Sequence record: PZ379075.1 | Strand: one strand, 5' to 3' | DNA: 64,000 nt | Source: a phage | Part shown: positions 76 to 41,052 of the stretch, in pieces | How the letters are laid out: each line of letters starts with the position of its first letter | Numbering within the stretch: position 1 is the stretch's first letter | Position numbers and translations under genes: made by a program | Notes under the pieces: model-generated | The model's input: only the letters and a program-made list of their open reading frames with translations | Told to the model about the DNA's origin: nothing | Database searches by the model: none

Positions 76-525
76 TTTCCCCGTGCCTACTCCCCGTTAT
101 TCTTTCCCCGTGTATACCATCCTATTCATTAGCTACCCGTTTATTTAGTTCCCCTTTACTGAGTGAGAGAAAGGCTAGCACTGTATAAACTAGTACAGGC
201 ACTACCATAAGAGGCTAATAATACCCATAAGTAATAGCCCACATCCCCCATAGTTTGAATGTAAATAGTTTCAATAGTAATGATTATGAGTGCAATAATG
301 ATATATGTATTAATTAAGTGGATGATTGTAATTCTTTTAATAATTGCTTTTATTCTTTTCTTTTTTCAGCGTGCCTTTGTGAGCGTAGCGAACGTCTTTG
401 ATGTTTGAGTTATACAATTATTTAAGTGGTATATTACTACCGCACTATCTGCCTATGTTTCCCCGTGGTCTGTTCTGCGGTTGTTGTATCCCCGTTTGTC
501 CTGATCTGTTGGTCTGTTACCCGTA
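76..525. repeat. Cluster of short direct repeats: TTTCCCCGTG at 76, 103, 458; TCCCCGTT at 91, 489
   Basis: Read directly in sequence; lies in ORF-free leader upstream of first promoter; possible terminal-repeat/packaging or origin-associated motif. Confidence 0.4.
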
Positions 526-2583: not shown

Positions 2584-2969
2584 GCTTAATCTTTCTCCTG
2601 TATTGTGCCGTAGTCATGCCTATGGTCATAATCTATCTGATGCTTTAAATCCTTCCTATAAGCCTCGCTATGAGGCTTTTTTCTTTTCTAAGGTGATTGT
2701 ATACCTTACTCCCTTTTAGCTCATTGTGATGCGTTATAGGCCGCTTGTTATCGCTTTACAAGCCTTTTCCTATGATGTATCACGTTCGCCCGCTCTTTTA
2801 CCTTCCTATAGTGAAAAAGTTTAAAATATTTTGTTTTACCCTATTGCATCCCTCACTGATTAATGTATACTTCATTTCATCGGGTACGATGTAAAACATA
2901 CAAGGCAAGGAAACTTGCCCCGCTCTTTAAAAATCAGGCTAGAAAGTGAAAATATTCTTAAAAAGAGTA

Positions 2970-2998
2970 TTGACACCGAAAACAGCCTGATATATAGT
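2970..2998 (+). promoter_or_regulatory. strong sigma70-like promoter (TTGACA - 17 nt - TATAGT)
   Basis: TTGACA at 2970-2975, spacer CCGAAAACAGCCTGATA, TATAGT at 2993-2998. Confidence 0.6.
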
Positions 2999-3602
2999 GA
3001 GCATAGTCAGCGATGACTTAAAAAATCCCGCTCTTTAAAAATATGATTTGTCTTACGGGTGGCGGCGACGTCATTACTATAAGGCGCTCAGTTAATCGGT
3101 AGAATTGATTCCTGATTCATACGTGACGCAGGCGGACAATAAGCAATATCAATAAGCCTTATTTGTTCGATACTTTCAAAAGATTAATGCTTGAAAGCGC
3201 ACTAGATTCCCTGAAAGACAAATCAGACTTATCATCTTGCCCTTTCGCATAGATTCACGCGAGATAAGGGAAAGGAATTAAAAGAAGATGATAAAAAGAG
3301 TTGCAAACGTGGTTAAAGTAGTCCATACTAACCACAAGTTAGCAAAACATCGCTAACTAGTTCCCAAATCAACGTATCGCGGGAAAGGTGGCACATAGTG
3401 CAGCGATTAGTTCAGGTGTAGGCGGCCTGTTAATGAATCAGTAAGCCTTCAATGTGACAGTGATTAGCAGACACTTTAAAAGGCTAAACGCTCTTTAACA
3501 ATATGAGTCATAAGTTAAGCCTCACCGCTTAATCTTCAATCAAATAAAGCTGATTGATATATCCTCCCAATAGCGGGAACGACGAAAAAGATTAAAAAGC
3601 GG

Positions 3603-3631
3603 TTGACAGCGAAAACAACATGATTCATAAT
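3603..3631 (+). promoter_or_regulatory. strong sigma70-like promoter (TTGACA - 17 nt - CATAAT), paralogue of promoter at 2970
   Basis: TTGACA at 3603-3608, spacer GCGAAAACAACATGATT nearly identical to promoter at 2970, -10 CATAAT at 3626-3631. Confidence 0.6.
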
Positions 3632-4552
3632 GAGCACTCACTAAGCAAATCATCGCTTCAGTGAAAAGCGTAACAACGGCTAACAGTTGCATAGTGTGAG
3701 AAAGCACACTGATAGATTTACCGCTCTTTAATAATTTAAACATTCTCCTATATCGGTTGAATATGCTTGATGATAATAACCATCGGAAAGCATACCAGAT
3801 AAAACGGCGTAAAACTCCCTAAATTATCAGGGTAAACAGTTTTACATTCCCTTACTGGAAACGTCACCATTGATAAACGGATTCATTGAGTACACGCAAA
3901 GACTTAAGCTAATCGCCCACGGTTAAGGGTAGCGGCGGTCATCGCTAACATGGTGCTACGGTGAAAGAAGTTAATCAGGGTAGGCAATCCCGACGAATTA
4001 ACGCTCAATTGAGAGCGGCGGTGAATGGTTAAAAAGTGGCAAATTGCTATTTAACAATAAGGTTTAGTGTGAACGTTTACGATGTGAACGGCTTGAGATT
4101 CATCTTATGATGAAAGTACATAGTCGGTTTATGTAGTAAACTTGCCGAAAGATATAAAACGTCGGAACATTAGACGGTCAATGACTCTTTCGCAATAGTA
4201 TCCCGTAGTGGGCGATGACTAGCGATTGAGAGTTGATATAAAAGGATAGGCGAGAGCGAAAGCAAAGTAAACGATATTGCCGACGGTTACAATAACGTAA
4301 CTAATTAGAGTCGGACGCACTGCCTTATTGTGATGATTGATCATCGCTATCAGGTCGGCTTCGTTTATAGCGACTAATTAAAGATACCAGATGAAACATC
4401 ACGGATAAGGGGGCGGCAAGGTTAACTCCTGATAAGACCGCCCCGCTTACCTATAACTACTTACAATGAGTGGTTATAGTTAAGTCAATAGTGACTTGAA
4501 TTGCTCATAGAGAGCGGGGCAATAGCGCCCTTACAATTGAAAGGTGAATATT

Positions 4553-5452
4553 ATGGCTAAAATCTTTACTCTGGTTAACGAATCTGGTTTTAATGCTCTG
4601 GCTAACAATATCCGTAGCAATAATGCAGCGATCAAACAAGATGTTTCTAACTTCCTGTTAGGTCATTTGCAGCACTTTCGTAGCAACGGTAAGAAGTTAG
4701 ATGTATTGCAGGCGGCGGTTGACTTCCTGTTAACCGAACGTTTCCGCGATATGGATGTTATTGCCACCGCGATCACTTTCTTAACTCCTATCAAGTTTAA
4801 CACTGATGCGTCAAATGGTCGTAAGAAGTGGATTAATCTGGAAGGTGAAGCGAAAGCTAAAGAAGATGCGAAAGAAGCGCAAATTAAAGCCAAAATGGAG
4901 CAAAACCGTGCCCGCTGGTCAAACGCTTTCGAAAACTTTGCATTAGGTCGTGCAATTGAAGTGGATAATCCTAACTTCTACAAAGGTTGCAATGACAACG
5001 TGGCGGCACACCTGCAAATTCCGGCGAAAAACAAGGAAGATTTTAATCAGGATATTTACGCTTTGGTTGAACGCTTGAATGCAATCCGTATTGAAGCCAA
5101 ATTACTGGCTGATGAGCGCAACGGCGCAACCAGCGATAACACTATCGCCCTGAGTGAAGAAGTTGGGAAGGTTAAAAAGTCCTTTGATTCACTCATCAAG
5201 AAAATCACGGCCTCGACGGTAGCGATCTCGGATGATTATCTGATGAACGCATCAAGCAAGGAATTAGAATCACTCGATTCATACGCTGATGAAATGGAAA
5301 AGACTGTTGCAGCTATGCAGGAGAAGTTAGAAAGTCTGCGCGGTCGTATCTCTTCAACGGTTGCTACCCGTACCGAACAAGCGGCGAAAGCAGAAGAGGA
5401 AGAAGTATTGCGTAAAGCGGCTGAAATTATGGCGGCACGTCAGGCGGCATAA
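4553..5452 (+). CDS. hypothetical protein with C-terminal coiled-coil character (about 300 aa)
   Basis: ORF 4544-5452; ATG at 4553 preceded by AAAGGTG; charged heptad-like C-terminus. Confidence 0.6.
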   Translation: MAKIFTLVNESGFNALANNIRSNNAAIKQDVSNFLLGHLQHFRSNGKKLDVLQAAVDFLLTERFRDMDVIATAITFLTPIKFNTDASNGRKKWINLEGEAKAKEDAKEAQIKAKMEQNRARWSNAFENFALGRAIEVDNPNFYKGCNDNVAAHLQIPAKNKEDFNQDIYALVERLNAIRIEAKLLADERNGATSDNTIALSEEVGKVKKSFDSLIKKITASTVAISDDYLMNASSKELESLDSYADEMEKTVAAMQEKLESLRGRISSTVATRTEQAAKAEEEEVLRKAAEIMAARQAA

Positions 5453-11273: not shown

Positions 11274-11349
11274 GCGCTCTTAGCTCAATGGATAGAGCAG
11301 TAGCCTTCTAAGCTATTGGTTACAGGTTCGAGTCCTGTAGGGCGCACCA
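11274..11349 (+). tRNA. tRNA-Arg (anticodon TCT)
   Basis: Hand-folded cloverleaf: acceptor GCGCTCT/AGGGCGC, D-stem GCTC/GAGC, anticodon loop CTTCTAA with TCT at 11307-11309, T-arm ACAGG-TTCGAGT-CCTGT, discriminator A, encoded CCA. Confidence 0.85.
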
Positions 11350-34604: not shown

Positions 34605-34660
34605 ACAGTAACTTATAATGTATACTCCTTAGTGTACACTGATATATTAAGGAGTTCTAA

Positions 34661-40639: not shown

Positions 40640-41052
40640 ATATCCTTTACTTTTTAGCTTTCTTAGGAATAATCTTTTTATCTATTATTCTTGAATTTGG
40701 TTTAAGTAGGTTAGTTAATTATTTAGGTAATAAGTAATTAATATTCTTTTAAATAGAGAATCAAAGTCCCTAGGAGTCCCTACAACCTAAATCAAGGATT
40801 CCTTAATTCTCTATTTTTATCTCGCAGGTGGCTCCTGCCCTTCGGTACTTGCAAGGGATTCTGTGAATTGCCCAATATACAAGCCTGCAATAACTTTATC
40901 AGCTATACAATATATACATTACTAGTGTGTTATATCTACTACCAAAGATACTTATATTATATAGTACTCTTATCGGTATAAGCGTAATGTATACTATACA
41001 TAACCGCTCAAAGAGAGCAACAATCTTTCAAATTAAATAAGGAAATTAAAAT
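40640..41052. promoter_or_regulatory. AT-rich 400-bp intergenic region with 11-bp inverted repeat (40751-40761 / 40806-40816) and TAATGTATACT motif (40988)
   Basis: Direct reading; candidate promoter cluster or replication origin upstream of SSB-like gene. Confidence 0.4.

Follow-up and report, generated by a model that had tools for sequence, protein, structure and literature searches.

The closest described counterparts of the element considered here are the leaders of the ribosomal RNA (rrn) operons, for which published work states that boxA RNA binds NusB-S10 and, with NusA, NusG and SuhB, gives a Rho-resistant polymerase that favours folding of rRNA during its transcription, long-range helices included (PMC4807359, PMC10250234, PMC5725501), and that the Nus-boxA complex both blocks Rho termination and assists rRNA folding (PMC4807359, PMC10250234). 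A boxA in the nascent early RNA also recruits NusB/S10 for processive antitermination at nutL and nutR of phage lambda, and in the lytic coliphage T7 tandem consensus host promoters (A1, A2, A3) open the early region, followed by a leader of ~100 nt with one boxA. Here we analyse a stretch of 1,951 bases, positions 2590-4540 of a 64,000-nucleotide phage sequence (record PZ379075.1; this whole length is called the window), which sequence matching assigns to Kuravirus, that is, to a phiEco32-like podophage. Phages of this kind serve as a model of how a phage controls the host RNA polymerase (through gp36 sigma and gp79), and therapy cocktails make use of them. On balance, we favour the reading that the stretch is the main early transcription control region, built like an rrn or T7 early leader, in which boxA elements would load Nus factors onto the polymerase.

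The stretch has matches in 98 phage records, all phiEco32-like podophages of Escherichia coli or Shigella belonging to Gordonclarkvirinae (Kuravirus and sister genera), with identities from 99.9% (Shigella phage ShigP1) down to ~77% for the weakest long match. Its phiEco32 counterpart, at 72.8-74.7 kb of the 77.5 kb record, separates gene 125 from gene 124 by 1.94 kb, and most records leave this gap unannotated; some 2.5% of the genome, where the early operon begins, thus carries no annotated feature in most of the ~100 matched records. Comparisons below were made with 21 distinct phages, namely the window phage and 20 relatives.

Exact CGCTCTTTAA occurs at 2921, 3029, 3489 and 3722, all on the plus strand and just where the original prediction, made from the letters of the window, had placed it; these are the only four copies in the 64 kb. 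Allowing at most one mismatch returned 12 matches against 4.5 expected, a count reached in none of 100 shuffles. Judged by its sequence, this repeated motif is the boxA antitermination signal, an identity that the original prediction had overlooked. The 11-nt gamma-proteobacterial boxA consensus, GYTCTTTAANA (PMC5725501), has four matches in the window against 0.61 expected (0/100 shuffles), all on the plus strand within 2922-3733, and all four boxA copies fit it exactly. The kind of element is known, and its assignment here is new. The copies belong to four cassettes, each consisting of a promoter-like site, a hairpin and a boxA, all directed toward gene 124 and with a promoter-boxA interval of ~25-150 nt:

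2844-2871, plus strand: P0, candidate extended -10 sigma70 promoter (TTGCAT-16-TG-TATACT), from sequence and homology to relatives
2861-2869, plus strand: TAATGTATA, exact consensus of the phage sigma factor gp36, overlapping the -10 of P0
2904-2919, plus strand: hairpin GGCAAG-GAAA-CTTGCC (GNRA loop), in a boxB-like position directly 5′ of boxA-1
2921-2932, plus strand: boxA-1 (CGCTCTTTAAAA), consensus match, single-stranded in the local fold
2970-2998, plus strand: P1, strong sigma70 promoter TTGACA-17-TATAGT (11/12), with an A/T-rich upstream stretch
3005-3018, plus strand: hairpin AGTCA-GCGA-TGACT, where the P1 transcript has its 5′ end
3029-3040, plus strand: boxA-2 (CGCTCTTTAAAA), ~+25 from P1
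3303-3331, plus strand: Pm, middle promoter by homology, degenerate TTGCAA-17-CATACT (8/12), absent from the promoter-scan list
3489-3500, plus strand: boxA-3 (CGCTCTTTAACA), ~-1063 from the gene 124 ATG, fixed in all relatives
3603-3631, plus strand: P2, strong sigma70 promoter TTGACA-17-CATAAT (11/12), ~-950 from the gene 124 ATG in 21/21 phages
3638-3711, plus strand: three hairpins in the 5′ leader transcribed from P2, the last of them at 3693-3710 with loop AGAAAG
3722-3733, plus strand: boxA-4 (CGCTCTTTAATA), within the longest invariant run of the RNA, 3714-3731

What had been described as two promoters and scattered motifs is therefore, as far as sequence goes, a set of four promoter-boxA cassettes, two of whose promoters are weak in this phage. 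Some motif copies had been located at +30 to +95 of the transcripts, in keeping with the ~+25 from P1 and ~+85 from P2 found here.

All four boxA copies are single-stranded in local folds and lie 1-10 nt 3′ of a hairpin, like that of the E. coli rrnB leader, where a hairpin is followed by TGCTCTTTAACAATTTA. The segment with the boxA-1 hairpin folds at -15.2 kcal/mol (z -3.0) and relatives have different hairpin sequences there; the hairpin at 3693-3710 (helix 4), 11 nt 5′ of boxA-4, has three of its six pairs changed on both sides. Those before boxA-2 and boxA-3 are individually no better than shuffles, the one at 3005-3018 being weak when taken alone (z -1.8; 14/200 shuffles fold equally well). 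At boxA-3, the 15-mer 3488-3502 (ACGCTCTTTAACAAT) is identical to T7 811-825, which lies between promoter A3 and gene 0.3, and the rrnB boxA match begins at its G. Similarly, boxA-4 reads GCTCTTTAACAATTTA in several relatives, 16 nt identical to the rrnB leader. The lambda-type nut arrangement was not found, the hairpin being 5′ of boxA as in rrn (no search for an N homologue was made); lambda has the order boxA then boxB, depends on the N protein and carries the weaker boxA CGCTCTTA.

The alternation of promoters and boxA is kept across the group. The 20 relatives have 3-5 boxA copies alternating with 2-4 good promoters, and in all of them P2 (~-950) and two boxA copies (~-1063 and ~-830) are fixed relative to the gene 124 ATG, with modules farther upstream of this core being gained, lost or swapped. 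The sigma70 promoters announced at 2970 and 3603 proved to be sound: both match at 11 of 12 positions and both have CGAAAACA in their spacers. Taken as a class, promoter-like sites show no enrichment over the first 8 kb (12 observed, 18.3 expected), where 11/12 sites comprise P1, P2 and one at 636 only. That last promoter has no boxA and its gene starts after ~40 nt, which suggests that boxA occurs where a long untranslated RNA follows.

P1 and P2 are already in the literature as predicted early promoters of phage SU10, whose Supplementary Table S2 (PMC4281155) lists promoters "between CDS120 and CDS121" (CDS, coding sequence), including a third one in the spacer; the text of the same paper mentions three sigma70 promoters likewise in the phiEco32 spacer. 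P1 has exactly the sequence of the early promoter predicted at 73996 in SU10, and P2 differs from its counterpart in that table by a single base. P1 (window 2956-2975) also shares 15 identical bases, AAAAAGAGTATTGAC, with T7 promoter A1 (T7 455-469), spanning the upstream A-tract plus most of the -35 hexamer. P0 was not listed by the promoter scan because its -35 hexamer is weak (3/6); a homologous site is kept in relatives, phiEco32 and EK010 having TTGACA-16-TAATAT instead. Homologues of Pm in relatives are 10-11/12 promoters (TTGACA-16-TAGAAT and TTGACA-17-CATACT/TATACT).

Downstream of P2 the transcript would consist of a large folded RNA that reaches gene 124 with no intervening terminator:

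3632-4552, plus strand: conserved structured RNA, reaching from the P2 start to that of gene 124, seen in the 21-phage alignment
3741-4027, plus strand: domain I, with a covarying closing helix, beginning 8 nt 3′ of boxA
4028-4055, plus strand: hairpin between domains I and II, predicted fold
4046-4057, plus strand: boxA-like GCTATTTAACAA (C4 to A), invariant and predicted to be paired
4056-4329, plus strand: domain II, predicted fold
4330-4402, plus strand: domain III, predicted fold
4406-4531, plus strand: terminal hairpin row, ending 10 nt 5′ of the Shine-Dalgarno sequence
4541-4555, plus strand: Shine-Dalgarno sequence AAGGTGA and ATG (at 4553) of gene 124 (299 amino acids)

In an alignment of window 3632-4555 (P2 -10 element to gene 124 ATG) with the other 20 phages, RNAalifold returned 246 pairs, 67 of them with compensatory changes, and with ribosum scoring 276 pairs in 42 helices. 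The 276-pair structure has standard pairs in 98.4% of 5,784 cells. Pairs changed on both sides number 76, compared with 32.9 ± 2.9 in shuffles (reached in 0/500) and with 4-13 when partners are slid by 1-3 columns. G-U pairs far outnumber A-C combinations (494 vs 38) and are lost when the structure is mirrored to the opposite strand, which indicates that the folded molecule is the plus strand, the one transcribed from the promoters. A single-sequence fold gives -278 kcal/mol against -224 ± 9 in shuffles (z -5.84), with gene 124 as a comparison at z -0.2. Mean pairwise identity is 0.872 for the RNA and 0.876 for gene 124, whose third codon positions reach only 0.73, so the RNA is under purifying selection. 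Its base pairs are thus selected, and on the plus strand. The boxA-like GCTATTTAACAA inside the fold is probably structural rather than a Nus site, since it is predicted to be paired in a hairpin and a long-range helix.

A covariance-model search, proposed with the original prediction, gave no family when run with Rfam models: none of the 4227 models of Rfam 15 (GOLLD, ROOL, HEARO and OLE included) matched the region at gathering score, at E up to 10 the region had chance-level matches alone (15-20 bits), and no tRNA or tmRNA was found in it. As far as could be checked, this ~0.9 kb structured RNA is undescribed. It resembles GOLLD, ROOL, HEARO and OLE in being hundreds of nt long with many covarying helices, and some of those are phage-encoded; it differs from them as a promoter-proximal leader fused to an mRNA and accompanied by boxA.

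The earlier suggestion of noncoding RNAs is strongly supported by this plus-strand covariation and by the absence of coding signal. The longest plus-strand open reading frame within 2590-4540 has 49 amino acids (2745-2894), in agreement with the earlier statement that none reaches 60, and the next gene begins with the ATG at 4553. The companion suggestion, small peptides, did not hold up. Several short open reading frames are present, and the variable upstream part of SU7-type phages has an annotated 66-amino-acid gene, but across the 21 phages no small frame in the core is kept in place and length, and the variable columns of the RNA lack 3-nt periodicity (0.39/0.45/0.42 by phase), whereas gene 124 shows identities of 0.94/0.96/0.73 by codon position. 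ShigP1 annotates a 67-amino-acid hypothetical protein on the minus strand, corresponding to 3540-3743 (-), and this frame lies opposite P2 and boxA-4; it is probably a spurious call because its length and position vary among relatives. That annotation has overlooked conserved small proteins in this region is accordingly very improbable.

Selection on plus-strand pairing also bears on a reading at the DNA level, in which the stretch is a transcription-activated replication origin, or a set of promoters near the entering genome end by which host polymerase pulls in the DNA. It is invited by the length of the non-coding stretch and its strong tandem promoters, which lie 3-5 kb from the end of the genome at which early transcription starts, and by the analogy with T7, whose entering end bears promoters A1-A3 and whose primary origin lies behind twin promoters. 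Nevertheless, on the other strand the 494 G-U pairs would turn into A-C mismatches, and pulling in DNA requires promoters, not a conserved fold. Specifically, a replication origin was rejected: there are no iterons, repeats other than the boxA family are a few short two-copy pairs, and the GC skew does not turn at the region. We regard the DNA-level reading as quite improbable. Also proposed was a promoter/terminator decoy, which is not needed since the anatomy is explained without it: a scan found no plus-strand terminator between 2678 and 5475, and the sole one of the region (2660-2678) belongs to the upstream operon.

In the antitermination reading that we favour, host sigma70 polymerase would start at the four tandem promoter-like sites, of which P1 and P2 are near-consensus, and boxA, once out in the nascent RNA, would bind host NusB-NusE (S10). 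Joined by NusA, NusG and SuhB, this would produce an rrn-type polymerase complex that is Rho-resistant and aids RNA folding. Such a modified polymerase would traverse untranslated RNA over a length of 0.9 kb when starting at P2 and up to 1.7 kb when starting at P0, help the long-range helices to form and then continue into gene 124 and the early operon; with repeated cassettes, transcripts of every promoter would become modified. From the arrangement described we infer transcription, Nus binding, Rho resistance and any function of the RNA beyond that of a leader. The position of boxA-4 just 5′ of a covarying long-range helix fits a chaperone role. The terms abundant and early, which the original prediction applied to RNAs of this region, would be backed by how strong the promoters are and by published work on phiEco32 and SU10.

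The likeness to rrn leaders extends to the tandem strong sigma70 promoters with A/T-rich upstream DNA and to the long structured untranslated RNA, whose long-range helices begin just past boxA. There are differences too: boxC is absent here, there are four cassettes rather than one boxA per rrn leader, and the phage RNA is dissimilar to rRNA and continues into protein-coding genes. T7 has a single boxA, whereas the present region has four, along with 0.9-1.7 kb of conserved structured RNA. A boxA is reportedly also present before enterobacterial CRISPR (clustered regularly interspaced short palindromic repeats) arrays, as Stringer et al. are said to have described in 2020. Another lies in the suhB 5′ untranslated region (PMC5725501). 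At such sites the transcript is untranslated and would otherwise be open to Rho. Those are host loci with a single boxA, unlike the four here.

Several points weigh against this reading. To our knowledge, the T7 boxA has no demonstrated role. By inspection of the sequence and alignments, no GT-rich boxC (TGTGTGGG-like) is evident after any boxA copy, although neither lambda nor T7 requires one. In the window phage both P0 and Pm are weak, and they are supported by homology. With little C (18%) and a tight fold, the RNA may be a poor Rho substrate even without boxA. A helix that would join the flank of boxA-4 to the ribosome-binding site (3711-3726/4539-4552) shows no covariation and is broken in phage Bas88; we do not rely on it. 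In sequence libraries the stretch appears only as wastewater contigs, in which starts, ends, strand and level are not readable. The four wastewater runs (Logan contigs) comprise two recorded as RNA, a third guessed to be RNA and a fourth that is probably DNA; the contigs with the stretch have depth figures above those of neighbouring genes, but the runs were chosen with the stretch and contig depth cannot rank genes, so depth was rejected as evidence for transcription or abundance. Finally, no mention of boxA alongside any name of this phage group was found in the literature searched, a search that did not extend to the primary phiEco32 papers (Savalia 2008 and Pavlova 2012), which may already describe part of what is reported here.

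A function of the fold is favoured by the size of the RNA, by loops that do not vary and by conservation at the level of a protein, and the constant link to gene 124 points to a cis or joint role of that fold. It is possible, though we hold it with clearly less confidence, that the folded RNA is itself the product: a stand-alone functional RNA, perhaps cut from the leader, acting in trans or as a protein scaffold (for example in host takeover or counter-defence), with promoters and boxA serving mainly for amount and correct folding. This overlaps with the antitermination reading and the two are not mutually exclusive. Conservation equal to that of the neighbouring protein gene speaks for it, as do invariant loops on covarying stems (e.g. 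the 21-nt loop of hairpin 4406-4449), the modular domain build and a length of ~900 nt with ~40 helices, well beyond what a spacer or a simple 5′ untranslated region needs. So does ATACCAGATRAAAC, repeated within the RNA at 3792 and 4384. Conversely, neither a processing site nor a 3′ end is visible and no terminator precedes gene 124; the distance to gene 124 is constant in 21/21 phages, including those without gene 125, which a cis role fits equally well; and no Rfam family offers a functional lead. A CsrA sponge was rejected, as GGA motifs are under-represented (7 vs 15.7 expected).

An extended version, which we consider unlikely, would make the 0.9 kb fold a new class of large phage RNA, produced in the manner of rRNA by a Nus-modified complex of polymerase and chaperone and having its own role in host takeover, for instance as a ribonucleoprotein scaffold or as a mimic capturing ribosome-biogenesis or Nus factors. 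If true, such an RNA would be known for the first time from a lytic coliphage group that is easy to handle. The repeat at 3792 and 4384 comprises the 14-mers ATACCAGATAAAAC (3792-3805) and ATACCAGATGAAAC (4384-4397), located in two RNA domains with both copies conserved across phages; ACCAGAT occurs twice against 0.08 expected, and the repeat could be a protein-binding or tertiary-contact motif.

The modular build also shows in a further feature between boxA-2 and Pm:

3039-3230, plus strand: optional structured RNA module with a 21-nt long-range closing helix (3039-3059 with 3210-3230)

This module is present in nine of the 21 phages compared, and its fold has 58 pairs, 98.8% paired, with three double-change pairs vs none in slid controls. 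Contigs from two wastewater RNA libraries of one sample carry the locus and omit exactly 3041-3226 (186 nt). The omission agrees with the relatives without the module, which thus behaves as a movable RNA domain.

Under the antitermination reading, early expression in this group would depend on host Nus factors, which would be a new dependency on the host and might help to determine host range. The group would also offer a well-supported large structured RNA in phages (BASEL Bas86-94) that can be propagated on E. coli K-12, for which genetics, probing and cryo-electron microscopy are straightforward.

Beyond the group, no sequence homology to the stretch was detectable in 5,426 complete E. coli genomes, prophages included, and a protein-anchored search with gene 124 returned known close relatives only. 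Two invariant oligomers of the RNA (21- and 27-mers) were found in 13 contigs from IMG/VR and metagenomes; every one of these contigs above 16 kb measures 68-78 kb. Searches with nhmmer and with covariance models of two domains (R1 and R2) returned nothing significant at the genome ends of two more distantly related phages, Salmonella phage 7-11 and Cronobacter phage GAP52, and the two models matched nothing in the window beyond the RNA itself. Both phages nonetheless have untranslated early stretches. In 7-11, ~1.15 kb separates the early sigma70 promoters from the first early gene, in a leader without boxA; in GAP52, ~0.74 kb follows the early sigma70 promoters and holds a single consensus boxA (192-202, minus strand), and after the last GAP52 promoter comes GAGCA..AGCAAATCATCGCT, an initial transcribed sequence resembling that of P2. 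A long early leader may thus predate the Kuravirus fold. Phage 7-11 has been suggested to need an antitermination strategy still to be defined (PMC8948821), for which a boxA route in the phiEco32 subgroup, if the antitermination reading holds, would be a lead.

Pseudomonas phage Achelous has three promoter-boxA cassettes in its first 1.6 kb (741-1567), each before a small gene. Clusters of 2-4 consensus boxA, most of them behind a TTGACA-type promoter, were also seen in unrelated phage early regions. A promoter and boxA scan of viral contigs (IMG/VR) is expected, by rough estimate, to return a few tens of chance matches, so only contigs with several clustered cassettes were counted as meaningful. 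Cassettes in other phage groups suggest that boxA of the rrn type is common in lytic early leaders, so that rrn-style antitermination may be more general there than the usual accounts have it. They also bear on another use of boxA, as a sink in which abundant early transcripts with one to four boxA copies each would titrate NusB/S10/SuhB, so that rrn antitermination is lost and host ribosome synthesis collapses in the course of takeover. Four consensus copies behind strong promoters exceed any single transcript's need, and Friedman and colleagues reportedly found in 1990 that plasmid-transcribed boxA competes for a limiting host factor. Yet T7 and Achelous have 1-3 cassettes directly before ordinary small genes, which points to a cis role, and a sink leaves the conserved 0.9 kb fold unexplained. 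We judge it improbable.

The TAATGTATA at P0 is found in the window phage, ShigP1, ECBP2 and KBNP1711 and not in phiEco32, SU7 or 4E8; further exact copies in the window are at 34616 and 40985 (+) and at 40913 and 50816 (-). In phages with TAATGTATA at this place, P0 might remain active after gp79 stops sigma70 transcription. A 15-nt inverted repeat (93%) pairs the boxA-1 region (2915-2929) with 4508-4522, just before the gene 124 ribosome-binding site, and AGAGCGG, the complement of the 5′ part of boxA, has two copies in the RNA, at 4013 and 4511. The idea of an anti-boxA was dropped, given that both AGAGCGG copies are in local covarying hairpins and the extended complementarity is lost in phiEco32.

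Upstream, the stretch is bounded by the end of the preceding operon:

2660-2686, plus strand: intrinsic terminator with an 8-bp stem (stem-loop 2660-2678), a loop of 3 and a T run, ending the gene 128-125 operon

Its stem varies on both sides among relatives (AAGCCTC/GAGGCTT vs AGCGCC/GGCGCT). Just past it is a conserved block, 2690-2720 (CTAAGGTGATTGTATACCTTACTCCCTTTTAGCTC), with a small hairpin; its minus strand matches the gp36 promoter consensus with one mismatch (TAAGGTATA). Early proteins of 88 (1606-1869) and 121 (2218-2580) amino acids are called 'polymerase' and 'terminase' in many records via PHROG names, labels that look unreliable because the proteins are so small and lack Pfam support. 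A tRNA-Arg (anticodon TCT) at 11274-11349 is the sole Rfam or ARAGORN match in the 64 kb.

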